Source: an uncultured Saprospiraceae bacterium
GTDB taxonomy: Bacteria > Bacteroidota > Bacteroidia > Chitinophagales > Saprospiraceae
Assembly: GCA_938039305.1 (NCBI GenBank)
Contig: CALHUZ010000537.1
Coordinates: forward strand, 1-44,350
Direction: 5' to 3'
Length of the DNA stretch: 44,350 nt
Below the pieces are notes generated by a model. That model ran no database searches, was not told the origin of the DNA, and saw only the letters and a program-made list of their open reading frames with translations. Below are positions 10,142-40,158 of the stretch, one piece after another; positions within the stretch are counted from its first letter, which is position 1; each line of letters starts with the position of its first letter. The position numbers were made by a program, and so were the translations under genes.

Positions 10142-11269
10142 ATGAATAGAATTGTATTGATAAGTGTTACGATCTTTACTCTTTTCAGCTGTACTGTTAC
10201 CCAACAAACAGTGGCTCAAAATGCGATCAATAAGAATGAGATAAAAGCTTCAATGATCAAAGCTTTGGAATGGCAAGAAGCCCATCCTATCATGGCACTT
10301 GCGCCTACGGATTGGACTAATGGTGCATATTATACAGGTGTAGCCAGAGCTCATGAGACAACCAATGATATGATGTATATGGCGGCGTTGAAAAACCAGG
10401 GGTATCGGAATAATTGGAAAACCTTTAAAAGGTTGCATCATGCTGATGACGTGGCGATTTCATACAGTTACTTATATGTAGATAGGGCTGAGAATAGAAG
10501 AAATTTTGTTGATCTAACCTCTACAAAAGAATTTCTGGATGCACATTTGTATATGCCGGATCAATGGAAAGAAGGAAATGATAAAAGTGAAATGGGTAAA
10601 ACCATTTTATGGTGGTGGTGCGATGCACTATTCATGGCTCCTCCAGTAATTAATCTATATGCCAAACAAACTGGCCAACCAAAATATCTGGACGTAATGC
10701 ATAAGTATTATATAGAAACTTATGACCAGTTATACGATCAAGATGAACATCTATTTGCCAGGGATATGCGCTTTGTCTGGAAAGGTTCGGACAGAGATCA
10801 AAAAGAACCTAACGGGAAAAAAATATTTTGGTCTCGTGGTAATGGCTGGGTCATTGCTGGACTTGCTTTGTTATTAGATGACATGCCAATGGATTATAAG
10901 CACCGTCCCTTTTATGAGGAGTTATATCAGGAAATGGCTGCCAAAATATTAGCTATTCAACCAGATGATGGTCTGTGGAGAACGAGTCTTTTATGTCCAG
11001 AATCATATGATCATGGTGAGGTTAGTGGTAGTGGCTTTTACACTTTTGCACTTACATGGGGAATTAACAACGGCCTCTTAGATAGAAAATATATTTCAGC
11101 AGTGAAAAGAGCTTGGCAAGCATTAAAGGCATGTCAGCATAAGGATGGTAGAGTAGGTTGGGTTCAAAATATTGGCGCATTTCCCGAGCCTGCCTCTGCT
11201 GACAGCTGGCAAAATTTTGGAACAGGAGCTTATCTTTTGGCTGGTAGTGAAATACTAAAGTTGAAATGA
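10142..11269 (+). CDS. GH105/GH88-type unsaturated uronyl (rhamnogalacturonyl/glucuronyl) hydrolase
   Basis: YteR-like motifs [34 protein letters not shown] and [12 protein letters not shown]. The start is 1 nt after the GH3 stop, so the two are co-transcribed. Confidence 0.8.
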
Positions 11270-18465: not shown

Positions 18466-19425
18466 CTATTTTTCTACTTTCTCATAGGTAGTATTGGCCC
18501 ACCGTATCTGTGCTCGCCCTCCTTTGACACGATATGCACCGTATCTGATGCCAGATTGTATGCCCTTTTCGGGTTCAGGGATATCCCATCTATACTCCTC
18601 ACCTCCGATGATTGCATCGGCATAGTGTATCTTTTTAGATGTATCCGTAGAGTCTACTCTGAAGCCTACCTTGAGCTCTACATCCACGCAGAGTCCTTTT
18701 TTGATATTGGTGAGAAAGACTACCTCGCGGCCATCCTTTCCTTCTCCACCTCGATAGTTTATTTGCTCTCGATATAGATCAAATGATACTTGTTCATCTT
18801 TAGTCTCTTCGGTGTCACCATAGACAGGTTTAGCCAGATAGAGACAGATCGCAGGATCTGGAGATCCACCTCCCCCTGTATGTTTTCCTTTAGCCTGCAT
18901 GATATAGGAGCCATCGTTGTTCGTGTTATTAGTTTTACCAGTCTCGAGTATGCGTACTGTACCTGTGAAATGTGCATAGCTTCCTATCTCTGCAGATTGA
19001 GATCGGGACAGTGATCTTTCTATCCGAGGCTGCAGGCTATTGTTATCTTGATTATTAGATCCATCTGTGATGTTGTAGACGCCCCAGATGGTTTCTCCTA
19101 TTGATATTTCACTGTAGTTAGCATAGCAGCTTCTGTCATCTATGGTGCCCACATTGCTGGGGGCAGAGATGTCTGTAGCTCTCACTGCATTAGCGCCCTC
19201 GGGAGTGCAGGTCTCATATGTGCCGATGAGCTCATCTGCTACGTATACACCATTCTCTTTTGTGCTTGGAGGGGTTTGATCTTCCTGTTCCATTTCGTCA
19301 TCTTGGTCTGATGAGGGGGCGTTATCCATCATAATATCATCGTCATCGGTACATGATATGAAGCTAGAGATTAGTAGCGCTGCGAGTAGGCAGAGAGTGA
19401 TGCTATGGGCTTGTGATATTTTCAT
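18466..19425 (-). CDS. Hypothetical surface lipoprotein; beta-jelly-roll-like, candidate polysaccharide lyase or binding protein (family not recognised)
   Basis: Lipobox FISC (Cys codon 19351-19353) followed by the acidic tract [25 protein letters not shown]. The body has spaced motifs loosely like PL7/alginate_lyase2-type jelly rolls: [28 protein letters not shown]. The three + strand ORFs overlapping it are shorter and have no recognisable features. Confidence 0.6.
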
Positions 19426-21509: not shown

Positions 21510-24500
21510 TTAAAATGTTACGTTAAGTCCCAAACTTAAAATTCTAGCATTTGGATACTCACCATTTGAAAAACCTTGAGCAATATTACCCAAACCACCT
21601 CTGCCAAATCTACTGGACTCTGGATCAATTAATCTGAAATCAGATAATAGTAACAAATTAGTTCCTGAGGCATAAAGCGACATTTTTTCTATACCCTTCC
21701 AGCCCATTTTGTTAACTGGAAAATTATATGTCAAGCGGACATTCTTTAGACGTAAATGTGTACCATCTTCAATCTCAAAAGAATTGGGTTGATAGGCACC
21801 TTCAACAAACCCTGGTCTAGGAATATCCGATGTTGGGTTGTTAGCCGACCAGTAATCAGCAACTTCTGCATACTTTGGAAGCTCACCACGAATAAAAAAG
21901 CTATTACGTGATCTTAAATTATAGACTTCATTACCAACGGTACCTTGTATATAAATACTTAAATCAAGATTTTTGTAAGAGATATTGTTTCCAAATCCGA
22001 AAATTAGATCTGGCCATGGATTACCTAATACTTCAAAATCCTCGTTAGATATGGTGCCATCTCCATTTGTGTCTTGATATCTGGGGCCTCCAACAGCATT
22101 TGTTGCTGGATCTTGACCTGAAGCAGCAATTTCTTCTTGACTTTTCCAAGTTCCTAAATACTGTGCTCCCGTAAATACTGGTGATGGTTCACCAACGATT
22201 AATCTTAAGTTCCCCGCACCAAGAATCTGGTCTACGACTACATCTATAAATTCTTCTCCACCAAGATCCAATATCTTATTCTTATTCGACGATAAGGTGA
22301 TAGTAGAATTCCATTTAAAATCAGGCTTTGAAACATTATATGAAGTAAGCAAAAACTCCCATCCTTTGTTCTCTAAAGAACCAATATTTCGCAATTGATT
22401 AGTATACCCTGTTTGTCTTGGTATAGTGACATTCAATAACAGGTCATTAGTCTCTTTTTGGTAATAGTTGAATTCTGTAAAGAGTCTACCATCGAATAGC
22501 GAGGCTTCTAAAGCAATATCAAATGCTGTAGTTGTTTCCCATTTCAAATCTGGATTTGCTGGCCTTCCCAGTAGTGCGCCTGGAACTTCAATGCCATTAA
22601 ACGAGGTATTTGCTTCTACTAAAACACCTAAGGTATTATATGGAGAGATGGCCTGATTTCCTGATTTACCATAACTGACTCTTAATTTTAAATCCTCAAA
22701 GGTGGATTGATTTTGCATAAAAGGTTCTTGCGAAATTTTCCAAGCAGCTGCTACAGATGGATAAAACTCATATTTATTACCTGGAGCAAACACCGAACTT
22801 CCGTCACTTCTACCTACTAATGTTAATAAGTACTTGTCGTTAAACGAATAGTTAAGCCTTCCGAAGAAGGATACAATTGAATTTTGGGTAAAAGAAGAAC
22901 CCAGTAAGTTCCTTAATGGATCGCTCCCTGTACCTAAATTGTTAAATGTAGTTGCATCTGTTGTAAAACCGAAAGCTTGTGAAAAAGCAGTCTCTCTGGT
23001 TGTTTTCTGAAAAGATGCTCCACCTAAAAGAGTGTAGCTATGATTGTCATTAAAGTCCCCTGAATATTGAATGGTATTTTCGTTATTCCATCCAAAAGAG
23101 GACACTGATCCGATTTTAGCATTACTATCTGTAGTAGGAAGATCAGGTCTTTGGCTAGACGTAAACTCATTTCTTTTAGAAGTAGTAATATCGGGATTAA
23201 ATGTTGAGCGGAGTATTAGATTTTCAATAGGACTATACTCTAAAAATACTGTCCCTAACAAATTGTTTATAGAAGACTCATCTATATCCAATTGTGATGT
23301 TGCAACAGGATTGTTAAAGGGATTTCCAACTACTTCATTTCTTCCATTAAAAGAACCATCATCATTAAATACGGGCTGGGTTGGTAAAATGCCAAGTAGA
23401 CCGCTATAGCCAACAACACCATTTTCCTGATTAATTCTGGAATAATTTAAACGGAAACCTGCATTCAATTTATCACTTAACTTAAAATCCAAGTTTGATC
23501 TAAAAATAAATTTTTGGATTCCAGAATTATCAATGAGACCATCTTGGTCGTAATAATTTAGCGAGTTATAATAATTAACATCACCATTTTCTGAAGAACC
23601 AGCTATAGAAACATCGGCATTATATATTGGTGATGGGTTTAACAAAAGGTCGAAAAAGTTATTATCTGGATAGTCTGATGGATTTCCTGGAAATGGCTCA
23701 GCTACACCTCTAAGTATTGCATCTTGATTAGTGTAATCTATTTGTTGTGCTTGATTTAAATATGCGGGTCGCTCAGGTACCATCTGCGTACTAGTATATA
23801 GTCCCACACTAACTTGAGGTTTACCATTTCCACCTCGGGCTCCGCTTTTAGTGGTAACTAATACAACACCATTTGCACCTCTAGACCCATAGATAGCAAT
23901 TGAGGATGCATCTTTTAGTATCTCAATGGATTCCACATCATTGGCATTAAGATTATTTAGGTTGAAATTCGTGCCGACAATAATTCCATCAATAACCCAA
24001 AGTGGTTCATTACTACCTGTAATGGAGTTGCCACCTCTAACTCTTATGGATGTACCTGCACCAGGTGCACCACTAGTTTGTGTAACCTGCACACCTGCGG
24101 CCCTTCCTTGTAAAGCTTGATCAATTCTCGAAACAGGTACGGCTGCAACATCTTCGGCGCCTATAGAAGATACTGAACCTGTTAGATCTGACTTCTTTTG
24201 TTTACCGTATCCTACGATAACTACATCACTTAAGATTGAACCTTCTTCGAGGGTCACATCAACAGTTGATTGATTAGTTACATCAACTTCTTGATCTTGA
24301 TGTCCAGCATAGGTAAAGACTAAGACCTTATCTCCGTCCTGAAGACTTAAAGAGTAGGTTCCGTCAAAATCAGTAATGGTACCATTTAAAGTACCTCGTT
24401 GTAATATATTTACACCTATCAGTGTTTCTCCATTAGAGGAGTAAACTGTTCCAGTTATGTCCTGACCAAAGCCGTAAAAGCTTGTCAGCGTAAGAAACAG

Positions 24501-24581
24501 AATGTACAAAAGAGATGAATTTTTTGGTGGAGAGTATTCGACCCTCAGATAATGATTAGCAATTTTTTGAAATCTTATCAT
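21510..24581 (-). CDS. susC: SusC-like TonB-dependent outer-membrane transporter
   Basis: Carboxypeptidase-regulatory-like N-domain (ITGTVYSSNGETLIGVNI), TonB-box/plug region (DVVIVGYGKQKKSDLTGSV, IEILKDASSIAIYGSRGANGVVLVTTK), a 22-strand-size barrel, and a C-terminal LGLNVTF. Confidence 0.92.
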   Translation of the reverse strand: MIRFQKIANHYLRVEYSPPKNSSLLYILFLTLTSFYGFGQDITGTVYSSNGETLIGVNILQRGTLNGTITDFDGTYSLSLQDGDKVLVFTYAGHQDQEVDVTNQSTVDVTLEEGSILSDVVIVGYGKQKKSDLTGSVSSIGAEDVAAVPVSRIDQALQGRAAGVQVTQTSGAPGAGTSIRVRGGNSITGSNEPLWVIDGIIVGTNFNLNNLNANDVESIEILKDASSIAIYGSRGANGVVLVTTKSGARGGNGKPQVSVGLYTSTQMVPERPAYLNQAQQIDYTNQDAILRGVAEPFPGNPSDYPDNNFFDLLLNPSPIYNADVSIAGSSENGDVNYYNSLNYYDQDGLIDNSGIQKFIFRSNLDFKLSDKLNAGFRLNYSRINQENGVVGYSGLLGILPTQPVFNDDGSFNGRNEVVGNPFNNPVATSQLDIDESSINNLLGTVFLEYSPIENLILRSTFNPDITTSKRNEFTSSQRPDLPTTDSNAKIGSVSSFGWNNENTIQYSGDFNDNHSYTLLGGASFQKTTRETAFSQAFGFTTDATTFNNLGTGSDPLRNLLGSSFTQNSIVSFFGRLNYSFNDKYLLTLVGRSDGSSVFAPGNKYEFYPSVAAAWKISQEPFMQNQSTFEDLKLRVSYGKSGNQAISPYNTLGVLVEANTSFNGIEVPGALLGRPANPDLKWETTTAFDIALEASLFDGRLFTEFNYYQKETNDLLLNVTIPRQTGYTNQLRNIGSLENKGWEFLLTSYNVSKPDFKWNSTITLSSNKNKILDLGGEEFIDVVVDQILGAGNLRLIVGEPSPVFTGAQYLGTWKSQEEIAASGQDPATNAVGGPRYQDTNGDGTISNEDFEVLGNPWPDLIFGFGNNISYKNLDLSIYIQGTVGNEVYNLRSRNSFFIRGELPKYAEVADYWSANNPTSDIPRPGFVEGAYQPNSFEIEDGTHLRLKNVRLTYNFPVNKMGWKGIEKMSLYASGTNLLLLSDFRLIDPESSRFGRGGLGNIAQGFSNGEYPNARILSLGLNVTF

Positions 24582-24617
24582 TGTCTACTTATTTAGCTTA
24601 ATTAATTATACGACAAT

Positions 24618-24663
24618 CAAATATATATTTCGGCAAGTAACAAGACATCCTGTGCTGTACTGT
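24618..24663 (-). promoter_or_regulatory. Site D of the recurrent element (ACAGTA-cagc-ACAGGA on the minus strand) plus a consensus -7 box
   Basis: On the minus strand, ACAGTACAGCACAGGA occupies 24663-24648. Then 22 nt, then a perfect Bacteroidota -7 box TATATTTG (24625-24618). The ATG of susC at 24581 is 67 nt from the repeat. Confidence 0.6.
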
Positions 24664-24697
24664 GCCGTATCTATAAGCTATAACACGTAAGACATAA

Positions 24698-25747
24698 TTA
24701 GGCAGATTGCCTATCGATAAAGTTGAATTCGTTTTGTTGAGAAGAGAGCTTTCTGGTAAGAATCATTTGTGCTGCAGAGACACCTAGTTTTTTAAAGTTT
24801 GTACTGATAACGCTTATGCCTAGTAGTTCTTTTAATGGAGTGTCATTGTATGAAATAATTCCGATATCCTCTCCCATTTTGTACGAGCTTTTACGAAGTT
24901 GAGTGATTAAGTTTATTAAGTCTTCTTCTTGGAGCGTGATATACAAATCTTTGGACTTGAATTCTATACCATCAAATATTTTAGGCAATACTTCGTAGTC
25001 AACATTGATGGACTTACAAAACTTTCTAAATCCCTTAACGATCTCTTTGGGATAAGGATAAACAACTTTCTTAGGATAAATAAGAAGTACTTTTTTATAA
25101 GTATTTAGTTGGTCTGCAATACGTGTTAAGGCGTTATAAATATCTGCTTCAAAGTCTTGATAAATTCTTCCGAAAATTTTGGAAGTATTTTTTATATCAC
25201 GGTCTAAGAGTATCAGTTTATTAGCCGGTATCTGCTCAATTACATTCAATAGATCCCGTGGGCAATCGATGTACTGAAACCGGTCGTTTTTAAAATGAGG
25301 GACTATAATGTAATAGTCATATTTTGATTGATTCGCTGTAAGTATTTTCTTCAAAATCAAAGGATCACAATAGTATATTTCAAGATCAACTTTAATATTT
25401 GTTTTGTTAAGTGCTTCCACAAATGAGTTGAAGACTTGAGTTTTATAACTACTCAACTTGTTGATCACAAAAAGCACACGTACTTCAATTGATAAATCAG
25501 TCTCAGCGATATAATATCCTTTACCTCTAACAGAGATTATTATTTTCTGATCTAAAAGAGTATTGTAAGCTTTTTTTACTGTATCTCTAGATAGGCGATG
25601 TGTTTTACTTAAGTGATTAATGGACATGATTTTATCACCTACGAACAGTTGTTCATCTCTTATACCTCTTTTTATCGCGTTAATGATCTGCTTATACTTG
25701 GGAACAGTAGAAGCTTCATCAATAGATATATAGCCGTCTTCGATCAT
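24698..25747 (-). CDS. Transcriptional regulator: GntR-type winged HTH fused to a LacI/periplasmic-binding-protein-like sugar sensor
   Basis: N-terminus VPKYKQIINAIKRGI...INHLSKTHRLSRDTVKKAYNTLLDQKIIISVRGKGYYI (GntR HTH). The C-terminal ~250 aa have an alternating beta/alpha PBP-like pattern. Clear paralog of 35506-36594. Confidence 0.8.
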   Translation of the reverse strand: MIEDGYISIDEASTVPKYKQIINAIKRGIRDEQLFVGDKIMSINHLSKTHRLSRDTVKKAYNTLLDQKIIISVRGKGYYIAETDLSIEVRVLFVINKLSSYKTQVFNSFVEALNKTNIKVDLEIYYCDPLILKKILTANQSKYDYYIIVPHFKNDRFQYIDCPRDLLNVIEQIPANKLILLDRDIKNTSKIFGRIYQDFEADIYNALTRIADQLNTYKKVLLIYPKKVVYPYPKEIVKGFRKFCKSINVDYEVLPKIFDGIEFKSKDLYITLQEEDLINLITQLRKSSYKMGEDIGIISYNDTPLKELLGISVISTNFKKLGVSAAQMILTRKLSSQQNEFNFIDRQSA

Positions 25748-25938
25748 AAATTATATTGAAGAAATTATCATAAGGTCCATGGCTCTATAAACTTTAGTTT
25801 ACTCTAAGTTGTGGCATAAGTACCGCTTGTTAGGATTAGGCATTAAATATAGTTTTGTGTCATGATATCATCGTCTTTTCTAATAAATTAACCTATTTAA
25901 ATATTTTTTACCTAAAAGAACTGTTTTAGCAAGCATTG

Positions 25939-27465
25939 TTATTTGGATATTTTTGTGGCAATAATTCTCGTCTTTTGTTCTACAAAATAAGGTTGAAAAG
26001 AGTAAGATGAATGAGCGTCCCAAGGCGCATTGAAAACAGGCAAGTACTGTTTTAATGTATCTATAGTGCCTTTGTAGCTCAGATTATTTGCTTGATTAGT
26101 AAATTCGTCAGGATCATAAAGATGATCATACAGTTCTTCTTCACCATCTTCATATTGGATGTATCTAAATCGCTGTGATTTTATCGAATGATTATTCATT
26201 CCAAATGTGCTAATGGCGACATGATCCTCAGAATTTATTGAATCTTGCATGAATGGAAGCAGGCTAATTCCTTCATTTTTATCATATGAAGGAAGGCCGC
26301 ATAGTTCTAATAGTGTAGGGTAGATGGAAAGTAGTTCTACTGGCTTATCAATCTTGATTCCTTGAGGAAGGTTTGGGCCAGCAAAAAAGAGGGGAGTATT
26401 GGTGGCGACATTCCAAAGTGCATGCTTGGCGAACGTACCTTTTTCTCCTAGTCGGTAACCATGATCCGACCATAATACAATGACGGTATTATCAGCATAG
26501 TTACTGTTTTCTAAAGCATCTAACAACCTTCCTAATTCATAATCCACATAACTTATACATGCCAAGTAAGCCTGAATAATTTTAGGCCATTCACCACTTT
26601 TTATTGCCCATTCTGTGGAGGGCATCATAGGTAAGTCGTTTATAAGATGTGCGACTTGCGGCACATCATCTAAATCGTCGCTTTGATAAGGAGGCGTAAC
26701 AATACTATCCAATGGATGAAGATCGAACCACTTTTGTGGTACATGTAAGGGGACATGTACTCTGAGGAATCCTACGCCTAAGAAGAAAGGTGTTTCATAA
26801 ATTTTGGATAGCCGTTCGATCGCCCAATCAACAGATTGATGATCTGGCATTAATGAATCAGCATCAGGGAAAGCTCCCCAGTCTGTATTTGTTCTACCAT
26901 ATTTTGTCCGATCAGCGGTTCCAAATCCATCCCATACAAACCTCTTTTCAGGATAAGGTCCAAATCCTTTTACTCTTCCTCCCGATTCATTAAAAAGACC
27001 TTGAGGAGCATGACTATGAAATAACTTTCCGATACCCATAGTATGATAACCATGGTTTCTAAAATACTCTGGCAAGAAGATAATGTCCCGAGTTGCAGGA
27101 TTCTCAGATCGTATGTTGTCATCTGATATTGCACCATAAATGCCCGTTGTAGAAGGGCGCAATCCTGTCATGATAGATGCTCGTGAAGGGGCGCAAAGTG
27201 GCGACTGGCAATGGGCGTCTGAAAATAATACGCCTTGTGCCGCCAACCTTTCAAGATTGGGCGTTTTTGCATTAGAAAAACCTTTTAGACCTTCAATCCA
27301 CGTATTTAAATCGTCAACAGCAATGAAGAGAACATTAGGTGTTTGATTTTGACTGTTGCTTAAATATTTTTGGGGATCATCATTATTACAAGCACTCCAA
27401 ATAAATAAAGTCAAGATCAAGAGTAGGAATACCTTTCTTGGCATAGCGCTTAATGACCTTCCCAT
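25939..27465 (-). CDS. S1 sulfatase (formylglycine-dependent), lipoprotein
   Basis: PNVLFIAVDDLN, CQSPLCAPSRASIMTGLRPSTTG, GKLFHSH and WSDHGYRLGEK. The alternative start at MPRKVF (27444) would remove the 16-nt overlap with the upstream gene. Confidence 0.9.
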   Translation of the reverse strand: MGRSLSAMPRKVFLLLILTLFIWSACNNDDPQKYLSNSQNQTPNVLFIAVDDLNTWIEGLKGFSNAKTPNLERLAAQGVLFSDAHCQSPLCAPSRASIMTGLRPSTTGIYGAISDDNIRSENPATRDIIFLPEYFRNHGYHTMGIGKLFHSHAPQGLFNESGGRVKGFGPYPEKRFVWDGFGTADRTKYGRTNTDWGAFPDADSLMPDHQSVDWAIERLSKIYETPFFLGVGFLRVHVPLHVPQKWFDLHPLDSIVTPPYQSDDLDDVPQVAHLINDLPMMPSTEWAIKSGEWPKIIQAYLACISYVDYELGRLLDALENSNYADNTVIVLWSDHGYRLGEKGTFAKHALWNVATNTPLFFAGPNLPQGIKIDKPVELLSIYPTLLELCGLPSYDKNEGISLLPFMQDSINSEDHVAISTFGMNNHSIKSQRFRYIQYEDGEEELYDHLYDPDEFTNQANNLSYKGTIDTLKQYLPVFNAPWDAHSSYSFQPYFVEQKTRIIATKISK

Positions 27466-28811
27466 GAGTGGTCAATTATTTCTTTCAATTCTTGAACAAT
27501 CTCGGGATTCGAATTTGCTAAATTCTCTGTTTCAAATGGATCATTGAAAATATCAAACAATTGCACCTCTTCATTAGGTTTGTTTTTCTCATCTGGAAGA
27601 ATAAGTTTATATGGATTGGTGATTGCCATTTTATAGTACATGCTCTCTTCTATAGTATTAAAATCATGAGCATAGATTTCTCCTAAAACGGCTTTTCTAT
27701 TCTGTAGTTTCGATTCATCCAAGACATTTATACCTTCTAAATTATTAGGTTGATCAATATTCAGCATATTTAAAATAGTAGGTATAATATCAATGCTACT
27801 TGATATTAGATCTGATTCTATTTTCGGAATAATCTTTCCTTTCCACTTGTACATTATGGGAGTGCGTAATCCATAGTCGTAAGGGGAACGTTTGGAGATT
27901 TTATTATACTGGGCATTGTTTTCATTTTGAACCCATCCGTTATCACATACATAAACAAACAGGGTATTTTCTGTTTGACCTCTGTCATCTAAGTAATTCA
28001 TTAGTTGTCCACATGTAGTATCGAACCATTCACACATAGCCCAATATTTAGCAATATATGGGGTAGGCGCATTGGGGAGATATTTCTTTAAGAGTGAATC
28101 AGGGGGGTTGTGTGGAGTATGCGGTAGAAATGGTGCGTACCACATAAAAAAGGGTTGTTCTTTTTCTAATGCTATGTCTATATAGTTATAGAGAGTATCC
28201 ATTCCCTTACGGCCTATCTCCAACCCATAATCTCCATGTCTTCCGCCTCTCTCTCGATCACCATGTGTCATCCCATAGTCAAAACCTCCATTAGCATAAT
28301 CACCAATCCACCATTTTCCAGTTTGAAAGGACAAGTACCCTTTCTCTTTCAAAAGTTTAGGCAACGTGTTCAATGTTCTGAAATTTTGAATTACGGATTT
28401 GTAATTATCACCTCTCCATGCTTCATAAACTGAAGTTCCTGGTGTTCTTTTGTTTTTTAACTTGTCTTGGGGTAGTACTCTATCATTTCCTAGTACCAGA
28501 TGATGTCTTGGGTATAGGCCAGTTATCATAGAAGCTAGAGATGGAGCACAGAGCGATGTGGGTACATATCCATGCGTAAAGGTTAGGCTCTCTTTTGCTA
28601 ACTTATCAATATGCGGTGTCTGAATATGGGGATGTCCCATAAAACTATAATCCGTCCATGCTTGATCATCGGAAATAATCAACACAATATTTGGTAACCG
28701 CGTTAGACTACTCGTCTTGGAATCGATAGACTTAGTATTACATGAGTGGATCACAAATATGGTAAGGACAACGCCAACAATTGACTTAATATTTATAAAT
28801 TCTCGTGTCAT
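27450..28811 (-). CDS. S1 sulfatase-family protein with a non-canonical maturation motif (C-A-P-S-L)
   Basis: PNIVLIISDDQAW, CDNGW and the overall sulfatase layout are present. The signature reads TSLCAPSLASMITGLYP (nt 28550-28536, minus strand), with Leu (CTA) where the invariant Arg should be. Confidence 0.85.
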   Translation of the reverse strand: MTREFINIKSIVGVVLTIFVIHSCNTKSIDSKTSSLTRLPNIVLIISDDQAWTDYSFMGHPHIQTPHIDKLAKESLTFTHGYVPTSLCAPSLASMITGLYPRHHLVLGNDRVLPQDKLKNKRTPGTSVYEAWRGDNYKSVIQNFRTLNTLPKLLKEKGYLSFQTGKWWIGDYANGGFDYGMTHGDRERGGRHGDYGLEIGRKGMDTLYNYIDIALEKEQPFFMWYAPFLPHTPHNPPDSLLKKYLPNAPTPYIAKYWAMCEWFDTTCGQLMNYLDDRGQTENTLFVYVCDNGWVQNENNAQYNKISKRSPYDYGLRTPIMYKWKGKIIPKIESDLISSSIDIIPTILNMLNIDQPNNLEGINVLDESKLQNRKAVLGEIYAHDFNTIEESMYYKMAITNPYKLILPDEKNKPNEEVQLFDIFNDPFETENLANSNPEIVQELKEIIDHSWEGH

Positions 28812-28881
28812 ATGCCATTTAATATTTGTGTATATATCATATATCGGGAGGGTTCATTATAGATACTACATTTACTTTAGT

Positions 28882-30258
28882 CTATTTAAATTCCAACAAT
28901 AACAATGGGCTTAATGGCCCCTTCGGAATAATTTTGGGAGCATGTTTTCGAAATCCGCCATGCTCTGCTTCCCACTTAAGAACGTATCTTGAGTTGGCTT
29001 TTTCATGTGTTCTTTTGTCATAAGCAAGACGAACCCTCATATCAGGATCACTAGAAATCTTATCATATAAATCTTCTGGATATAGCTTCTGAATATTTGG
29101 CACTTCATCGGAATGTTCAAATGTGTTAAGGTCAATAATGTATTGTCCAGCATCTCCTTTTTCTGTAGTCCAATCGATAGCTAATATGCCATCATCTGAT
29201 AATCCTACAAAATTGAATTGTCCTCCTATGCTCATAAAGGCTCCTCCGTCAATAAATTTCCATCTAAAGTCCCAATCGGATATTTTTTTAGAAACCCAAA
29301 CGTCTCCAATATGCCTAGCAAGATATAATTGAGTGAGTCCTTGTTCATCATATTTAGTGTATCCGATGATGGGTTCGTCATTATTATCAAGCATCAATTT
29401 GTAACGGCTATTGTGCAAGCCTCCTTTAGATGGCGTGTTGTCGACCAGAACTTTGCTATCATCAGGTGTAAAAGGCAATGAGACGGGTTCGTTATTGATA
29501 TTTTTCCAATTTTTTAAATCAGATGTCTTAGCATAGCAAATATGATGGCTGGTTTCAACCATAGGTGTCCATCTCCACATCCAGGCAAAATGAAAGTCTC
29601 CTTTAGAGTCTTTAACCCAATGATGGTAGGCTGCTCTTGTATCGGTTTTCTCTATTCCCTCAAACAACGGTTGCTTGAGATATCTTTCCCATTTTCCTTT
29701 ATGCGGATCAAATCGATTGATCAGAATGTTTCCATTTCCACAAGACCCAGACCGGTAAGAAAAGAGTAGTTTGCCAGATTTATCATTGAAGAAACTTGGA
29801 TAAGTCACGCTCTCTTCATCGTTTCCCACCATTACGTTTAATTCTTGCATGCTGGTTACGTCGTAAGGTTTCGAGCTTCTGTAATAGGCCAGTGGGTCTA
29901 CATGTTGGTTACCGCTTACATGGATATAGCCTAATTCGTCTATTCCAAGTTTTACAGAATTGTGTGAATCCCAAATAAGCTGATTTGGCAAGCTTTTTTT
30001 TATCCATTGGTTACTATTGACATTTCTGGATGCAACAGTCATCATTCGATTCCGATCGTAGTAGACTATAAACTGAAGTTCTCCAACAGTTTTCATATCA
30101 AACCTTACTCCATTTGCTGCCCAAACAGAATCAACTTCGAGTATTTCGAGAGTAACCGGTTCATTAGTTGGATTCAACTGAGCCATCAAAACAGTTGTAG
30201 CTGAGCTGAGATAAAATATTACAATCAGTATGAATATTTCTCTATGTAAGTACTTCAT
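28882..30258 (-). CDS. BNR_4-like beta-propeller protein (GH145 / PL24-PL25-PL42-like clan candidate)
   Basis: Signal peptide, then repeated blade-like segments with His-rich motifs: FIVYYD, WDSHNSVKLGIDELGYIHVSGNQHVDPLAYYRS, AYHHW, FHFAWMWRW, SHHICYAKTSD. This matches my recollection of BNR-4 repeat proteins. No search was run. Confidence 0.55.
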   Translation of the reverse strand: MKYLHREIFILIVIFYLSSATTVLMAQLNPTNEPVTLEILEVDSVWAANGVRFDMKTVGELQFIVYYDRNRMMTVASRNVNSNQWIKKSLPNQLIWDSHNSVKLGIDELGYIHVSGNQHVDPLAYYRSSKPYDVTSMQELNVMVGNDEESVTYPSFFNDKSGKLLFSYRSGSCGNGNILINRFDPHKGKWERYLKQPLFEGIEKTDTRAAYHHWVKDSKGDFHFAWMWRWTPMVETSHHICYAKTSDLKNWKNINNEPVSLPFTPDDSKVLVDNTPSKGGLHNSRYKLMLDNNDEPIIGYTKYDEQGLTQLYLARHIGDVWVSKKISDWDFRWKFIDGGAFMSIGGQFNFVGLSDDGILAIDWTTEKGDAGQYIIDLNTFEHSDEVPNIQKLYPEDLYDKISSDPDMRVRLAYDKRTHEKANSRYVLKWEAEHGGFRKHAPKIIPKGPLSPLLLLEFK

Positions 30259-30278
30259 AATATTGAATAAGACTAAAA

Positions 30279-33038
30279 TTATTTGATAGTTGACATGAAT
30301 TCATATTGCCCAGGGTCGAGCTCTAATTTAAATGCGTTTTCGAGCTTATTAATCAGTTTTACACCTGGGTGTTCAGATAATTTACTACCTGTCATTAACA
30401 ACTCTTTGCTTGTATCCCCTGGAACAATAAGTTCAGCAGTTGTATTAGGTGGAATTGTCGTGTTGATCTTAAAGGAGTCGTCTTCTAACTTCCACTCTGA
30501 CATTATCCAGCCATAAGGGCTGTCATATTCTGCTGTTACAGAATCGATAGGCCCTCCAAGTAGTGGAGCGATCCGTATGGACTTGTAGCCAGGTTCTAGA
30601 GCCTGAATGCCAGCAATTCTTTCATACATCCATTGACCTATTGCTCCATAGGCATAATGATTAAATGAATTCATTCCTTCTTTATGAAACCCTTCTTCAT
30701 GCGAATAACTGTCCCACCTTTCCCACATGGTGGTTGCCCCTTGATTAATGGAGTAAAACCATGAAGGATAAGTCTCCTTAAAAAGAATGGTGAACATTAA
30801 ATCGGGACGATTGATTTTTTCAAGGACAGGTGCGAGGAGGGGAGTACCTAAAAAACCTGTGCGCAAATGATTGTCAGCATTTCTAATTTCTGTTAATAAG
30901 TGAGGGACAACTTTCTCTTCCAATTCTGGCGTCAACAAGTTAAATCCAAGAGCCATGAGATAACCAGTTTGAGTAGGAGTACCGACGCTCACTCTTCCAT
31001 CATCATCGAAAAATGTATTTTGAAAAGATTGTCTTACCTCGTCTCGAAGGGTCTTCAAGCGGTTGGCATCCTCTTGCAATCCTAATACTTCGGCGGTTTG
31101 TCTTGTTAATTCAATGGATCTTGCATAATAGGCAGTAGATACCAAAGAGTCATCTGTTTCTCCTTTTTTGGTGTTTTCTGGGTTTTTGGAATAAGGCTGT
31201 AACCAATCTCCAAATGTGAACATTGTTACGATATGATTTGTGGCTTTTGATTCATAATAGTTCAGCCACTTGTGCATTGCTTGGTAATTATCATTCAGGA
31301 TATTTTGATCACCTGTCCGCTGATAGATTTCCCAAGGTATTATTGTGATTGCATCTCCCCATCCAGACGAAGAACGACCTTTATTAACTTTAGGAACGTA
31401 CCACGGAATGCCACCATCTTCATTTTGGTCTTCTCTTACGCTTTTCAACCAACTCGACCAAAAGGAATGTACATCTGCATTGAATAATGAAGTAGGGACA
31501 AAGACCTGTGCATCACCCGTCCACCCTAGACGCTCATTACGCTGCGGGCAATCAGTAGGAATGTCTAAAAAGTTACCTCGTAGTCCCCATTCAATATTAC
31601 TTTGTAATTGATTCAACTTTTCATGAGAAGAAATAAAGCTCGCTGACATGTCAAAATCAGAATATTGTACGAGTCCAGTTACCCATTCCTTCTTGGGAAT
31701 ATGATCTTCATCAAAACCGCTTAATTCTATATATCTAAATCCGTGGAAAGTAAATTTTGGATGCCAGGAAATGTTTCCATCCTCTGCGGGCGTATAGTAA
31801 TCAGTTGAAAGTGCTCCTCGATAGTTGTCGATATAAATAGAACCATCATTTTGTAGCATTTCAGACACTCTTATCTTTACTCTTTGTCCTTTTTTAACAG
31901 GGATATTAATGTGCGGCACTCCGGCCATATTTTGGCCCAAATCAAAAACGAATTGACCTGTGATAGGTTCGGATATACTTATTGGTTTTAATTCGGATTT
32001 ATTAGAAATCGGAGTATGGCTTTTAGGTCTGAGTAATACTTCTGGGTTCAGTGGTGCTTGGGTTGCATTTGTCCAGTCCTCAACATTAAAGTTAGCAGTA
32101 CTCCATAAAGGCATCTCTTTGTTGGCGTCATAAATCTCACCATCGTATAAACTCGAATACTGTATGGGGCCGTCAATGGAGACTTTCCATGAATCATCAG
32201 TTACAAAGGTTTCTCTTGTACCATTTTCATAAGTGATTTCGAGTTGAGCAATGATCTCAGGTAGCTTGTCAGTATAATTTCTAAAGAGTAATCTACCTGA
32301 ATGCCAACCTTCAGCTAGCATGAGACCCATGGCGTTGGATCCATCCTGAAGTAAGTGAGCAACATCATAAGACAATGATTCTATTCTTTTTTCGTAGGGC
32401 GTCCATCCTGGAGTGAGTACACCTTCTCCTACTTTTTTACCATTAATTTCAGCTTCGTATAGTCCTTTGGCAGAAATGTATAACCGAGCGTGCTTTATGG
32501 CAGGTTCTAATTGGATTTCTTTGCGCAGATATTGGATTTTATGAATTTTTCTATCTATCTCTGGTAGGCTATCAAGCTTTATATCTGGATGTCTTATCCA
32601 CTTTGCCGTCCAGTCTAGATTGCTGAGCAATCCTAGCTCAAAGTAGGCCATCTCGCTCCAGTTAGATTCATTACCACTTTCGTCCCAATATTTTATGCTC
32701 CAGAATACTTTTTGTCTAGAGTTTAATGGCGTTCCTTCATATTTAACATATAAGGACTGATCTGATTCAACTTTTCCACTTTGCCAAAGATCAGCATTTT
32801 GATGCAGCAAATCAGGTGAAGATGCCACGACGATAGAATAGGCTTTTTGTTTTTTAATTTCCTTTGGGAGTTTCCATGAAAATGTAGGTTGATTATCATA
32901 AAAACCTATCGGGTTGGATATTCCTTCGTTCAAGGTCAAATCAAAGGGCTCCGCTATTTTATTTTCTAATTGGCAGGATAAGAATAACAAAAATAGAATC
33001 CCAATACCATACCTTTTAAAATGTGCTCTTTTTATCAT
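30279..33038 (-). CDS. GH78 alpha-L-rhamnosidase
   Basis: PTFSWKL, KAYSIVVASS, FWSIKYWDE, PTDCPQRNERLGWTGDAQVF and HYAYGAIGQWMY. Signal peptide with LSC. Confidence 0.92.
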   Translation of the reverse strand: MIKRAHFKRYGIGILFLLFLSCQLENKIAEPFDLTLNEGISNPIGFYDNQPTFSWKLPKEIKKQKAYSIVVASSPDLLHQNADLWQSGKVESDQSLYVKYEGTPLNSRQKVFWSIKYWDESGNESNWSEMAYFELGLLSNLDWTAKWIRHPDIKLDSLPEIDRKIHKIQYLRKEIQLEPAIKHARLYISAKGLYEAEINGKKVGEGVLTPGWTPYEKRIESLSYDVAHLLQDGSNAMGLMLAEGWHSGRLLFRNYTDKLPEIIAQLEITYENGTRETFVTDDSWKVSIDGPIQYSSLYDGEIYDANKEMPLWSTANFNVEDWTNATQAPLNPEVLLRPKSHTPISNKSELKPISISEPITGQFVFDLGQNMAGVPHINIPVKKGQRVKIRVSEMLQNDGSIYIDNYRGALSTDYYTPAEDGNISWHPKFTFHGFRYIELSGFDEDHIPKKEWVTGLVQYSDFDMSASFISSHEKLNQLQSNIEWGLRGNFLDIPTDCPQRNERLGWTGDAQVFVPTSLFNADVHSFWSSWLKSVREDQNEDGGIPWYVPKVNKGRSSSGWGDAITIIPWEIYQRTGDQNILNDNYQAMHKWLNYYESKATNHIVTMFTFGDWLQPYSKNPENTKKGETDDSLVSTAYYARSIELTRQTAEVLGLQEDANRLKTLRDEVRQSFQNTFFDDDGRVSVGTPTQTGYLMALGFNLLTPELEEKVVPHLLTEIRNADNHLRTGFLGTPLLAPVLEKINRPDLMFTILFKETYPSWFYSINQGATTMWERWDSYSHEEGFHKEGMNSFNHYAYGAIGQWMYERIAGIQALEPGYKSIRIAPLLGGPIDSVTAEYDSPYGWIMSEWKLEDDSFKINTTIPPNTTAELIVPGDTSKELLMTGSKLSEHPGVKLINKLENAFKLELDPGQYEFMSTIK

Positions 33039-33121
33039 TGACTATTTATAGTTTCTGTTAATATTTCTGCTGCTTTATATACACTTTTAGGTAGTACTAT
33101 ATCGACAAAGTGATCTTATCT

Positions 33122-35272
33122 CTACAATACTTTTAGTTTAATATTTTTGAGATCTTCATTGACAGAAGACCCACCAATAAAAATTGTAAAGTCACCAGGC
33201 TCCACAACTTTGTTCATTTCTTGATTGAACAAGCAGAGCTCGTCAAAACCTAAATTAAATGATACAGTTTTACTTTCTCCAGGTAACAGGGTAATTCGAT
33301 TGAAGCCTTTGAGCATTTTTAAATATCTGCCTACAGAGGCATAGTCATCTTTAACATACATTTGCACAACTTCATCGCCTTTTCTATCACCGGTGTTCGT
33401 CACTTCGATAGAAAGAGTAGTGCTCCCATCAACAGGAATATTGTTCTTTTGAAGCACTGGTTCCCCATATTCAAATGTTGTATAACTCAAACCAAATCCA
33501 AATGGAAATAATGGAGATTTATCAGTAAATTTATAAAGTCCCTTTCCAGATCCAATAAAATCTGGCCGTTCCAGATAGGTAACGGGAATCTGACCTACCG
33601 AACGTGGAAAAGAAATAGGAAGTTTTCCTCCGGGATTAACATCTCCAAAAATCGCATCTGCTATAGCATCCCCAGAGTGCATACCTAGATACCAAGTTTC
33701 GAGAATAGAAGGGATATTATCAGCGATATAGTTAATTGTAAGAGGCCGTCCATTTATCATCACTACTATAACTGGCTTGCCGGTTTTATGTATGGCTTCC
33801 ACGAGATCATTTTGGACTCCGTAGAGATTCAGATCTGAGCGGTCAACTCCTTCACCACCAGTTCTACGAGAACCACCCACTACTAAGACAACTGCATCTG
33901 AATTATTTGCAGCAGCAATAGCCTCTGGGAATCCAGACTTATTATTGCTTAATAGATCACATCCTTTGGCATAATTTATTTTGACTTTGCCATCTAACTT
34001 ATTAGTTAATCCTTGTAGGACAGATATATAATATGGGGGTAGGCCAGAGTAACCGCCTAATAAAGAGTAGGTACCCTTATTGGGTTTTTCTTCGGTTGCA
34101 TTTGGGCCAATAACTGCTAAAGACTTAATTTTTGAAATATTGAGTGGCAATAAGTCATTTTCATTTTTTAGTAAGACAATTGCTTTTTTTGCCATGTCAT
34201 ATGCAAACTCCTGATGCTCTGGACGACTGACGATGGTGTCTGACTTGGCCTCCTTTAGCTTTGACCCAAATAATCCTAGTTTGTATTTAGCAGTAAGAAT
34301 ACGAGATACGGACTGATCAATGTATTCTAAGAGTTTAGGATTTTGCTCTAAGGTATCTTTTAAAATGGTGGTGTGATATGTATAGAAATCTATATTCTTA
34401 CCTAATACTAGATCCATATCTACACCAGCTTTCAGTCCCAGGATAGCTGCTTCTGTTCTTGTCTTTGCAATTGCATGCATGGTCTCTAATCTTCCGACAT
34501 CATTATTATCAGAAATTATAAAACCATTAAATCCCAATTCATCACGCAAAACCTCATTCAACAACCACGCATTCATGTGGCATGGTATGCCATTATAATC
34601 TTGATGTCCAGGCATCACACAACCAACTTCAGCTTCTTTGATTGCCGCTATAAAAGGAGGCAGAAATACTTCTCTTAATCGACGTTCCGAAAGGTCACTA
34701 AATCCGCTATTTATGCCGCGACGATTTTCAGGGTATGCCACAAAGTGTTTTGCTGTGGTCAAAATATGATTTTGATCAAATTGTTCTTCTCCCATGCCTT
34801 GCATACCTTGTATGAAGGCGACACCCATTCTTGAAACTAAGTACGGATCTTCACCATAGGATTCTTCTACTCTTCCATATCTAGCATCTCCGGAAATAAC
34901 ATCTAAATTGGGAGAATAGCAGTGAGTTATATTAAGTGCACGCGCTTCAATGGCTGTCTGTGCAGCCATTTTTTTAATGAGTTCAGGCTCCCAGGTAGAA
35001 CCACATGCGATCGCTTGTGGATACACAGTAACCCCATCATACCATAATCCATGAAGGCCCTCACCAAACTTCATAAATGGGATGCCTAATCTATCATTGG
35101 CAGGGGCATCTTGAGTCATTTCTGCTATTTTTTCTTCTATAGTCATTTTATCAAGAAGAGCAGATACTTTGTCATCTATACTTGACTCTGTATTAGGATC
35201 ATTTTGCTTGTTATTAGATAGACAAGCAGAAAAGATTAGGACTATGCAATATGAAAGGAGAATTTTATACAT
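33122..35272 (-). CDS. GH3 beta-glycosidase (beta-glucosidase/beta-xylosidase type)
   Basis: [32 protein letters not shown] and a fibronectin-like C-terminus. Paralog of 7843-10140. Confidence 0.9.
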   Translation of the reverse strand: MYKILLSYCIVLIFSACLSNNKQNDPNTESSIDDKVSALLDKMTIEEKIAEMTQDAPANDRLGIPFMKFGEGLHGLWYDGVTVYPQAIACGSTWEPELIKKMAAQTAIEARALNITHCYSPNLDVISGDARYGRVEESYGEDPYLVSRMGVAFIQGMQGMGEEQFDQNHILTTAKHFVAYPENRRGINSGFSDLSERRLREVFLPPFIAAIKEAEVGCVMPGHQDYNGIPCHMNAWLLNEVLRDELGFNGFIISDNNDVGRLETMHAIAKTRTEAAILGLKAGVDMDLVLGKNIDFYTYHTTILKDTLEQNPKLLEYIDQSVSRILTAKYKLGLFGSKLKEAKSDTIVSRPEHQEFAYDMAKKAIVLLKNENDLLPLNISKIKSLAVIGPNATEEKPNKGTYSLLGGYSGLPPYYISVLQGLTNKLDGKVKINYAKGCDLLSNNKSGFPEAIAAANNSDAVVLVVGGSRRTGGEGVDRSDLNLYGVQNDLVEAIHKTGKPVIVVMINGRPLTINYIADNIPSILETWYLGMHSGDAIADAIFGDVNPGGKLPISFPRSVGQIPVTYLERPDFIGSGKGLYKFTDKSPLFPFGFGLSYTTFEYGEPVLQKNNIPVDGSTTLSIEVTNTGDRKGDEVVQMYVKDDYASVGRYLKMLKGFNRITLLPGESKTVSFNLGFDELCLFNQEMNKVVEPGDFTIFIGGSSVNEDLKNIKLKVL

Positions 35273-35431: not shown

Positions 35432-35505
35432 GGATTTAATTATAAATCTTAGTCCCAAGAATGCATCTCGATGTTGGATGATGATAGCCGTTACAAAGGT
35501 AAAGT

Positions 35506-40150: not shown

Positions 40151-40158
40151 TTTTCACA

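Follow-up and report, generated by a model that had tools for sequence, protein, structure and literature searches.

A putative PL42 (formerly GH145)-lineage propeller lyase from a clade linked to ulvan loci

Rhamnose-uronate propellers and the family of the Saprospiraceae protein

The closest described systems are the Bacteroides GH145 proteins, now in PL42 (BT3686, 5MUK/5MUL; BACCELL_00856, 5MVH; BACINT_00347, 5MUM; BACOVA_03493, 4IRT), which are encoded in arabinogalactan-protein PULs. BT3686 is a retaining α-L-rhamnosidase with a posterior-face site that acts on gum arabic, while natural GH145 proteins lacking its His48 display no rhamnosidase activity (PMC8377490, PMC8406133). The physiological substrates of the conserved anterior site of the lineage have been described as yet to be identified (PMC8406133). 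In FoRham1 (7ESK/7ESN), the L-rhamnose-α-1,4-D-glucuronate lyase from Fusarium oxysporum on which PL42 was founded, the enzyme acts in exo mode on the unsulfated gum-arabic cap, releasing Rha and generating unsaturated GlcA. The roles of the His/His/Tyr/Arg residues at this site are fixed by structures and mutants (PMC8377490, PMC8406133). The ulvan lyases of PL24 (LOR_107) and PL25 (PLSV_3936 and SH2L_Ulv3) are also seven-bladed propellers with analogous His/Tyr/Arg residues; they are endo-acting enzymes with deep clefts that cut Rha3S-(1→4)-GlcA/IdoA in ulvan. The uronate-containing fragments of this polysaccharide are processed in Formosa agariphila by proteins with unrelated folds, which act through hydrolysis and dehydration: an S1_25-GH78 fusion, then a GH3 glucuronidase or a PL37 dehydratase together with GH105.

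The window, by which we mean the whole 44,350-nucleotide stretch of Saprospiraceae DNA that was analysed, contains a 458-aa ORF that was confirmed as real (Table 1). A preliminary description of the sequence had placed a secreted propeller gene between sulfatases and a GH78, and this arrangement is borne out: all four genes lie on the minus strand, and the propeller gene is separated by 20 nt from the GH78 gene on its upstream side and by 70 nt from two overlapping sulfatase genes on its downstream side. The GH78 and propeller genes are probably co-transcribed; a promoter and terminator scan of positions 24500-36800 returned counts near the shuffled-sequence level. The sequence motifs quoted at the time are all found in the protein (WDSHNSVKLG at residue 96, HVSGNQHVDPLAYYRS at 113, AYHHW at 210 and SHHICYAKTSD at 237). 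Secretion is likewise consistent with a Sec-type signal, read from the sequence, that lacks a lipobox Cys and is probably cut after Ala26; AF2 models residues 2-27 as a helix running into a low-confidence stretch. Many homologs, unlike the query, have a Cys at the signal-peptide site (consensus). As the signal of the 458-aa protein has no such Cys, a soluble periplasmic location is likely.

The protein matches Pfam BNR_4 (PF15892) with an E of 4.1e-71 and 239.9 bits against a cut-off of 27.3 bits. The AF2 model (pLDDT 91, pTM 0.87) displays the seven-bladed propeller that had been proposed: from a reading of the secondary-structure listing, its 27 strands can be distributed over seven blades of four strands each, blade 7 being closed by the N-terminal strand 36-46. 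Searches of the PDB by sequence retrieved the GH145/PL42 structures 5MUM, 5MUK, 5MVH and 4IRT at E ~1e-41, over ~290 residues, and FoRham1 at E 3e-17; identity to the Bacteroides proteins is 24% over the structural alignment, and to FoRham1 ~20%. The best eight Foldseek matches are all GH145/PL42 (E 1e-24 to 1e-18; best TM 0.67/0.77), followed by PL24 and PL25 (E 1e-15 to 1e-17), ahead of any sialidase. In order of proximity, Bacteroides GH145/PL42 thus comes first and FoRham1 second, with the ulvan lyases of PL24 and PL25 in third place. The preliminary grouping with PL24, PL25, PL42 and GH145 is therefore supported by both Pfam and fold, and the similarity to characterized members (E ~1e-41) makes assignment to PL42 likely. 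The earlier concern that the protein might be too divergent to place is answered in part; it can be placed in the GH145/PL42 lineage, yet it sits on a deep branch. Proteins at least 47% identical to the query form a monophyletic clade (SH-aLRT 99), and the query branches outside the Bacteroides GH145 group, with long internal branches between.

Membership of PL25 was rejected, as neither a single sequence nor a profile retrieved 5UAM or 5UAS from the PDB at E <= 0.01, and the match is at fold level only (E 1.5e-15 at 14% identity); characterized PL25 members are mutually 45-51% identical. SH2L_Ulv3, a BNR_4 lyase reported in 2026 as a ‘distinct PL25', was also considered as a relative and discarded, being a true PL25 with no sequence-level relation to the query. 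In the case of PL24 only residues ~144-270, rather than the full length, align to LOR_107, at E 2e-7 to 1e-2; PL24-type lyases are detected at E 6e-6 to 1e-2 with a single sequence and down to 4e-12 with a profile, and their fold match is at 13-14% identity, which led us to reject PL24 membership as well. No Pfam or PDB sequence match to sialidases (GH33 and other BNR families) was obtained, and the sole sialidase within the first 50 fold matches is 2BZD (rank 44, E 5e-7, TM 0.33). BNR propellers include lectins, which do appear among the distant fold matches (E ~1e-8), and a non-catalytic glycan-binding propeller, or a sialidase-like BNR enzyme, was thus considered. This is highly improbable given that the full set of lyase residues is strictly retained down to 46% identity to the query, and that no sialidase precedes the lyases by Pfam, PDB sequence or fold search.

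Table 1. Positions in the window of the candidate lyase gene, its residues of interest and genes of the surrounding locus.
Feature	Position	Strand	Description
GH88/GH105-type unsaturated uronyl hydrolase	10142..11269	+	PF07470, E 6e-67
PL28 endo ulvan lyase	18466..19425	-	PF22826, E 5.5e-115
Two S1 sulfatase genes, overlapping	25939..28811	-	Downstream of propeller gene
First of these sulfatases	25939..27465	-	Nearest structure F. agariphila S1_7 ulvan sulfatase 6HHM
Second of these sulfatases	27450..28811	-	Nearest structure S1_16
Candidate lyase gene	28882..30258	-	Secreted BNR_4 seven-bladed β-propeller, PL42 (ex-GH145)-like
Pfam BNR_4 (PF15892)	29272..30075	-	Residues 62-329, blades 1-5; Pfam match
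His282-Asn283-Ser284-Arg285	29404..29415	-	Asn283 = FoRham1 Asn275, Rha O2/O3 ligand, subsite −1
Arg229-Trp230	29569..29574	-	Arg229 = FoRham1 Arg220, GlcA O3 ligand, subsite +1
Arg169 codon	29752..29754	-	= FoRham1 Arg166, BT3686 Arg159, carboxylate neutralizer; 108/108
Tyr153 codon	29800..29802	-	= FoRham1 Tyr150, BT3686 Tyr143; 108/108
His119 codon	29902..29904	-	= FoRham1 His105, BT3686 His110, supporting His; 107/108
His99 codon	29962..29964	-	= FoRham1 His85, BT3686 His90, anterior base/acid; 108/108
Val58 codon	30085..30087	-	At BT3686 His48, GH145 posterior-face hydrolase residue
Signal peptide	30181..30258	-	Residues 1-26, MKYLHREIFILIVIFYLSSATTVLMA, with Q after the cut; read from sequence
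GH78 α-L-rhamnosidase	30279..33038	-	Directly upstream of propeller gene

Catalytic residues and subsites

Residues were mapped through alignments to FoRham1 and BT3686, and conservation was counted over 108 homologs. The anterior His/His/Tyr/Arg of the Bacteroides proteins is identical in the query, which contains equivalents of FoRham1 His85, His105, Tyr150, Arg166, Tyr202, Arg220 and Asn275. In addition to the residues listed in Table 1, Tyr211, corresponding to the carboxylate-binding Tyr202 of FoRham1, and Arg229 are each present in 108/108 homologs. A reading of the AF2 secondary structure locates the mapped lyase residues at D-to-A or B-to-C blade junctions, and thus on the anterior face, while Val58 is at an A-to-B turn on the posterior face. 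The position of Val58 is occupied by V/I/A/L/T/S across the homologs, and in 0/108 by His; BACCELL_00856 and BACINT_00347 similarly lack the posterior His. The loss of His48, in combination with retention of the entire anterior set, suggests that the enzyme is of the lyase type rather than a hydrolase, narrowing a choice that the preliminary description had left undecided. On these alignments the protein resolves towards a putative lyase-type member of the GH145/PL42 lineage.

A GH145-type rhamnosidase resembling BT3686 would be consistent with the shared lineage and with the best NCBIfam match, which is the BT3686 rhamnosidase model (NF052497). The score against this model, however, is 195.3 bits compared with an equivalog cut-off of 700 bits, the catalytic His48 is replaced, and natural GH145 proteins with the same loss are inactive as rhamnosidases, making this the least probable of the functions considered.

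The residues about subsites −1 and +1 are, as judged from the alignments, remodelled in a clade-specific manner. Trp230 replaces the Glu that follows Arg220 in FoRham1 and is confined to the clade, all other groups having Asp or Glu at this position. On either side of Asn283, His282 and Arg/Lys285 are likewise clade-specific; Gln276 of FoRham1 is replaced by Ser or Gly in the clade (Ser284 in the query) and Ser170 by Cys173. Asn49, which stands where His occurs, is a further candidate for a clade-specific component of the −1 pocket. BT3686 depends on its Arg333 for lyase activity; at the aligned position the query has Gln347 and the clade is variable (S/N/Q/K/T), and the same D-to-A loop contains the invariant Arg332. 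The last ~115 residues, comprising blades 6-7, gave no sequence alignment to any solved PL42/GH145 protein. Alignment was attempted with a profile of 108 sequences, with a broader profile of 60 sequences in which the sister group was also represented, and with hhalign against a 25-sequence alignment of Bacteroides GH145 proteins; all three end at ~residue 350 and give no firm counterpart to BT3686 Arg333 or FoRham1 Arg331/Glu381, which, with FoRham1 Asn275 and Gln276, are the rhamnose ligands of subsite −1. FoRham1 Tyr26 was likewise matched to no residue of the query.

Linkage of the clade to ulvan loci

In addition to PL28 and GH105/88 enzymes, the window encodes three GH78s, an S1-GH78 fusion, sulfatases, SusC/D and rhamnose catabolism. 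It is the PL28 lyase that identifies this locus as a PUL for ulvan. A search of the MAG from which the window derives found no PL40 lyase, although at 85.5% completeness this is weak evidence. Uronate-containing ulvan oligosaccharides resist endo-lyases (review PMC8360166), a need that an enzyme of the kind proposed here could fill.

Members of the clade occur in marine Bacteroidota, Verrucomicrobiota and others. Ulvan markers, defined as PL28, PL40, PL37, GH105 or GH78 within 10 kb in loci of at least 10 kb, are present in 16/20 clade loci compared with 4/41 loci of the sister group, which comprises proteins of at most 40% identity (Fisher p 8e-8, with locus kinship ignored). Annotated clade loci containing ulvan genes are found in Algibacter, Draconibacterium, Puniceicoccaceae and Saprospiraceae. 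Algibacter and a Saprospiraceae MAG both retain GH78 next to BNR_4; in the latter, as in the window, a GH3-GH78-BNR_4-S1-S1 block is located inside a SusC/D ulvan PUL. Formosa agariphila is not among the best 80 of 317 related loci, for which one genome per species was used. We found no paper linking PL42/GH145 to ulvan loci, or characterizing the clade. As the clade forms its own branch and occurs almost only in ulvan clusters, it probably contributes a lyase reaction not yet described for the degradation of ulvan.

The genomic data also bear on the mode of action. Some clade loci, exemplified by that of Draconibacterium, encode GH88/105 but no other recognizable lyase, neither PL28 nor PL40, within 10 kb. 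Metagenomic gene calls fuse BNR_4 either to an S1_7-like sulfatase or, in one call, to the C-terminal region of an ulvan lyase from PL40. The loci with no other lyase and the PL40 fusion could point to an additional type of endo-acting ulvan lyase, similar to PL24 and PL25, that cuts internal Rha3S-GlcA/IdoA bonds of the polymer or of long oligosaccharides. Such an activity would be in keeping with the fold and His/His/Tyr/Arg constellation common to LOR_107 and PLSV_3936, with the partial sequence similarity to PL24-type lyases, and with Trp230, which, in place of Asp/Glu at +1, could provide a platform for a longer chain. Against this, the exo-acting PL42/GH145 enzymes are by far the closest relatives, PL25 is undetected at the sequence level, and the window already contains a PL28 endo-lyase. 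The plain Sec signal, with neither lipobox nor T9SS tail, also fits a periplasmic enzyme acting on oligosaccharides. An endo-acting lyase is thus unlikely, albeit the strongest competitor to exolytic cleavage.

The natural substrate may alternatively be another sulfated rhamnose-uronate glycan that is degraded together with ulvan, such as sulfated arabinogalactan-protein caps or other green-algal glycans, and is cleaved by the same mechanism. The anterior-site lyase of Bacteroides GH145 acts on sulfated wine AGP (PMC8406133), members of the sister group occur in other lyase-rich loci (Mariniphaga, for example, with PL8, Hepar_II_III and GH88), and 4/20 clade loci have no ulvan marker within 10 kb. 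This is nevertheless improbable, as the clade is linked to the ulvan-specific PL28, PL40 and PL37 across at least three phyla, and the conserved five-gene block lies within ulvan PULs both here and in the Saprospiraceae MAG.

Proposed role in ulvan breakdown

The reading we favour, to which we assign a probability of roughly 55%, is that the protein is a periplasmic propeller lyase of the PL42 (formerly GH145) lineage, belonging to an ulvan-specialized clade and most likely exolytic. The enzyme would catalyse β-elimination on its anterior face. Arg169 would neutralize the uronate carboxylate, to which Tyr211 would also bind, while His99, aided by His119 and Tyr153, would abstract H-5 and protonate the leaving O-4. 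The bond broken would be α-L-rhamnosyl-(1→4)-glucuronate (or iduronate). As in FoRham1, cleavage is predicted to be exolytic, removing rhamnose or rhamnose-3-sulfate from the non-reducing end. Likely substrates are ulvan oligosaccharides that contain uronate and resist the lyases, for instance Rha(3S)-GlcA/IdoA-Rha3S, and the resulting 4,5-unsaturated uronate end would be removed by the GH105/GH88 enzyme of the locus. That Bacteroides GH145 anterior sites do not cleave plain gum-arabic Rha-GlcA caps (PMC8406133) indicates that the substrate rules within the lineage are subtle.

A more specific and tentative proposal, which we consider doubtful at present, is that the clade constitutes an ulvan-specific subfamily of exo-lyases in which the −1 pocket, remodelled by His282 and Arg/Lys285 on either side of Asn283 and by Asn49, accommodates the sulfated sugar, freeing rhamnose-3-sulfate directly from Rha3S-GlcA/IdoA ends. 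The two sulfatases encoded next to the propeller gene gave no conclusion on the order of desulfation and lysis; neither has the S1_25 Rha3S exo-sulfatase 6HR5 as its nearest structure. If the proposal is correct, direct release of Rha3S would bypass the sulfatase, GH78 and glucuronidase/dehydratase route of F. agariphila, and the clade would define a new subfamily within PL42 and supply a branch that the ulvan pathway has so far lacked.

The proposed lyase would have its Rha3S-GlcA/IdoA-Rha3S substrates in common with the F. agariphila route and would lead to the same final GH105 step, a single elimination taking the place of two or three steps. Counterparts of that route, the S1-GH78 fusion and GH105, are encoded in the window, and as these handle the same fragments in F. 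agariphila the proposed lyase step may be redundant.

Among the major polysaccharides of the green seaweeds that form blooms is ulvan, and its enzymatic breakdown to rhamnose, uronates and defined oligosaccharides is of ecological and biotechnological interest. Should the favoured reading hold, one-step removal of terminal rhamnose from fragments that contain uronate would add a route to the accepted cascade worked out in F. agariphila, and the enzyme would be of practical use in the preparation or sequencing of ulvan oligosaccharides. It would also provide a second natural substrate for the PL42/GH145 lineage.

The ulvan locus and its BNR_4 gene

The window as a whole constitutes a locus for the use of ulvan. 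In addition to the features tabulated below, it encodes SusC/SusD, two GntR-type regulators, two GH3 enzymes, three GH78 domains (one of which is fused to a sulfatase) and at least six sulfatase domains. The preliminary description had placed a BNR_4 gene between GH78 and sulfatase genes; this order was found, with all the genes on one strand, and the four motifs quoted in that description all occur in the encoded protein, at residues 96, 113, 210 and 237. The N-terminus of the BNR_4 protein is a Sec-type signal peptide without a lipobox cysteine. The two S1 sulfatases encoded downstream are of different types: the first resembles an S1_16 enzyme and the second the S1_7 ulvan sulfatase, and neither is nearest to the Rha3S-specific S1_25. 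Orthologs of the sulfatase adjacent to the BNR_4 gene were found together with BNR_4 in several loci.

Features of the ulvan locus with their coordinates in the window
Feature	Coordinates	Strand	Remarks
Sulfatase-GH78 fusion	3103-6633		
Lipoprotein-like ORF	6918-7757	+	279 aa
GH88/GH105 unsaturated uronyl hydrolase	10142-11269		
PL28 ulvan lyase	18466-19425		
S1 sulfatase, second downstream	25939-27465	-	Overlaps first S1 gene; nearest F. agariphila S1_7 ulvan sulfatase 6HHM (E 1.4e-54)
S1 sulfatase, first downstream	27450-28811	-	70 nt from BNR_4 gene; nearest S1_16 kappa-carrageenan sulfatase 9FO1 (E 8e-32)
BNR_4 protein	28882-30258	-	458 aa; starts 20 nt past GH78 stop
GH78 rhamnosidase	30279-33038	-	
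Rhamnose catabolic operon	36724-42692		

The lipoprotein-like ORF matched nothing in Pfam, NCBIfam or PDB sequences, and those of its 101 homolog clusters that bear a name are all ‘hypothetical', ‘uncharacterized' or ‘lipoprotein'. Homologs occur in loci of BNR_4 relatives (L002, at 11540-12493, and the corresponding stretches of L006, L007 and L008, with further examples in L004, L025 and L029); in the Algibacter and Seonamhaeicola loci they follow the BNR_4 gene at a distance of ∼250 nt, and the Algibacter homolog has a T9SS tail. The AlphaFold2 model (pLDDT 86) is a β-sandwich, whose best fold matches, all weak, are CBM35/CBM6 modules, including a uronate-binding CBM35. The product may serve ulvan PULs by binding glycans at the cell surface.

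Family, fold and active site

The BNR_4 protein matches Pfam PF15892 with an E value of 4.1e-71. Its sole NCBIfam match was the equivalog model of the α-L-rhamnosidase BT3686, a Bacteroides GH145 protein, and the score of 195 bits against a 700-bit cut-off indicates a relative rather than an equivalog. Among PDB sequences the top matches were the Bacteroides GH145 structures 5MUM, 5MUK, 5MVH and 4IRT (E ∼1e-41), followed by FoRham1, the PL42 lyase of Fusarium oxysporum (3e-17), and then by weak and partial matches to PL24-type ulvan lyases; PL25 was not detected in this search. The AlphaFold2 model, built with 108 homologs (pLDDT 91, pTM 0.87), can by our reading be divided into seven four-stranded blades with an N-terminal closing strand. 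Foldseek comparison of the model with the PDB again ranked GH145 first (E 1e-24; TM 0.67/0.77), ahead of FoRham1 (4e-20) and PL24 (6e-17), the same order as in the sequence search, with PL25 next (1.5e-15) and lectins and GH43 enzymes far behind the lyases. The Foldseek match covers the entire propeller; the C-terminal ∼115 residues gave no sequence alignment to any solved relative.

The Pfam match and the seven-bladed model bear out the BNR_4 β-propeller, and no sialidase or other unrelated BNR family outranked the lyases by sequence or fold. The earlier proposal that the protein may belong to the propellers that cleave Rha-GlcA linkages was essentially right, GH145/PL42 being nearest by both sequence and fold. 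Assignment to PL24 or PL25 was rejected, as the PL24 matches are weak and partial and PL25 was undetected by sequence. SH2L_Ulv3, a BNR_4 ulvan lyase described not long ago, shares 45% identity with the PL25 enzyme PLSV_3936 and thus belongs to another family.

FoRham1 is an exo-acting L-Rha-α-1,4-GlcA lyase with an anterior active site comprising His85 (base/acid), His105, Tyr150, Arg166 (neutraliser), Tyr202 and Arg220, and with Asn275, Gln276 and Arg331 as rhamnose ligands; CAZy is to rename GH145 as PL42 (Kondo et al., PMC8377490). In Bacteroides GH145 proteins the lyase activity resides in an anterior-face site, where His90, Tyr143 and Arg333 of BT3686 are essential, and only those with a posterior-face His48, which is rare outside gut organisms, also display retaining rhamnosidase activity (Munoz-Munoz et al., PMC8406133). 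In HMMER alignments of the BNR_4 protein to both enzymes, His99, His119, Tyr153 and Arg169 align with His90, His110, Tyr143 and Arg159 of BT3686 and with His85, His105, Tyr150 and Arg166 of FoRham1, while Tyr211, Arg229 and Asn283 correspond to FoRham1 Tyr202, Arg220 and Asn275. The anterior residues are invariant in 108 homologs (46-96% identity), except for His119, which is present in 107 of the 108. The position of BT3686 His48 is occupied by Val58, and in the homologs by V/I/A/L/T/S, never His. In the model the conserved residues lie at D-to-A or B-to-C blade junctions, which we take to be the anterior face, and Val58 lies at an A-to-B turn, presumably on the posterior face. The aligned residues thus predict an intact lyase apparatus and no hydrolase apparatus; a GH145 rhamnosidase was rejected because the defining His48 is missing. 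The protein is likely to work like a PL42 lyase. It has all the family features that could be checked apart from the rhamnose ligands in blades 5-7, which are either altered or without a sequence alignment.

A clade associated with ulvan loci

With each prokaryotic species represented by one genome, a scan identified 317 relatives. Among the best 80 there was a sharp break: 27 loci were 47-70% identical to the query and all others ≤40%. The 27 loci derive from marine Flavobacteriaceae, Saprospiraceae, Prolixibacteraceae, Opitutales/Puniceicoccaceae, Victivallales, Sedimentisphaerales and Balneolaceae. In a maximum-likelihood tree this clade and the query are monophyletic (SH-aLRT 99, stem length 0.9) and sister to 52 other bacterial sequences, with the characterised Bacteroides GH145 proteins and FoRham1 outside both groups. 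In databases the clade members all carry the names ‘hypothetical' or ‘BNR repeat-containing protein', save one JGI ‘L-rhamnose mutarotase'. Histidine aligns with BT3686 His48 in 22 of 53 sister-group sequences (L032-L084, from environmental bacteria) compared with 0 of 27 in the clade, and the posterior hydrolase site may therefore be more widespread than thought.

Comparison of 17 clade with 43 sister-group sequences, mapped onto FoRham1, revealed that clade-specific changes adjoin known ligand-binding residues. His282 (Ile/Leu elsewhere) directly precedes Asn283, Ser/Gly284 replaces FoRham1 Gln276, and Arg/Lys285 is located two residues after Asn283; Cys173 takes the place of a Ser that matches FoRham1 Ser170 (a GlcA O1 ligand), Trp230, after Arg229, replaces Asp/Glu, and Asn49 replaces His. 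The residue aligned to BT3686 Arg333, which is Gln347 in the query, varies among clade members, and the invariant Arg332 lies in the same loop. Taken together, these features point to conserved chemistry with remodelled −1 and +1 subsites, as a change of substrate predicts. The extra basic residues at −1 and the lost acidic residue at +1 would, we infer, suit a sulfated substrate.

For each locus of 10 kb or more, the flanks were searched by tblastn, using as queries the PUL proteins of the window itself and a PL40 enzyme of locus L004. Any of PL28, PL40, PL37, GH105/88 or GH78 was found within 10 kb in 16 of 20 clade loci and 4 of 41 sister-group loci (Fisher p 8e-8, kinship among loci ignored), and a sulfatase in 18/20 and 9/41, respectively (p 7e-7, again ignoring kinship). 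The clade is distinct and tied to ulvan loci, and annotated examples confirm the pattern. GH78 and BNR_4 genes are adjacent in Algibacter agarivorans, in a locus with PL28, GH39, GH43, GH106 and sulfatases; the Draconibacterium locus encodes an S1-GH78 fusion, GH88, GH43, BNR_4, a sulfatase, GH2 and GH106; PL40 ulvan lyase and GH78 genes adjoin BNR_4 in a Puniceicoccaceae MAG; and a Saprospiraceae MAG locus is syntenic with the window over regulator-GH3-GH78-BNR_4-S1-S1-regulator-SusC-SusD.

Some clade homologs are longer gene calls that join BNR_4 to other sequences. P0066, P0084 and P0101 (∼800 aa) have an N-terminal ∼370-aa domain with only a faint GH5/Cellulase match. Among P0056, P0022 and P0062, BNR_4 is preceded in one by the last 177 aa of a PL40 ulvan lyase and in two by sulfatase fragments, that of P0022 being 68% identical to the window's S1_7-like sulfatase. 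The calls with PL40 or S1_7-like sulfatase sequence are cut off at contig ends and could be artefacts; contig ends or frameshifts may account for some of the longer calls in general. A Mariniphaga MAG locus (L085) carries two sister-group BNR_4 genes (10001-11404 and 17033-18427) with PL8, three Hepar_II_III-type lyases, an alginate-lyase-like gene, two GH88, a sulfatase and an S1-GH78 fusion, and looks like a PUL for a different sulfated uronate/rhamnose glycan.

The BNR_4 gene is single-copy in its own MAG. Of 40 related genomes searched, the 10 congeneric ones gave no match and the other 30 a single one, at 30% identity too distant for the clade, so the gene travels with the PUL. Its absence from congeners, together with synteny of the GH3-GH78-BNR_4-S1-S1-GntR-SusC-SusD block with the Saprospiraceae MAG SS_bin_77 (62-82% protein identity), suggests that the PUL is patchily inherited or horizontally transferred.

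Predicted role in ulvan degradation

Ulvan endo-lyases leave uronate-containing oligosaccharides that resist lyases; in Formosa agariphila these are processed by an S1_25-GH78 fusion, and then by a GH3 glucuronidase/iduronidase or by a dehydratase and GH105 (PMC8360166). The BNR_4 protein could provide a one-step alternative to this route. In the periplasm, the protein would take oligosaccharides with a non-reducing-end Rha or Rha3S α-1,4-linked to GlcA or IdoA and eliminate across C4-C5 of the uronate, which would free the rhamnose unit and give the GH105 enzyme an unsaturated end to act on. This proposal draws on the conserved GH78 adjacency, on loci such as that of Draconibacterium with GH88/105 but no other recognisable lyase within 10 kb, and on the metagenomic gene calls joining BNR_4 to part of PL40 or to an S1_7-like sulfatase. 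We found no paper tying PL42/GH145 to ulvan loci or characterising the clade. The fold and chemistry are already known; the clade and its context appear to be new, and the substrate is probably new. The mechanism would be unsurprising, and the clade marks a clearly delimited gap in the ulvan pathway that can be tested.
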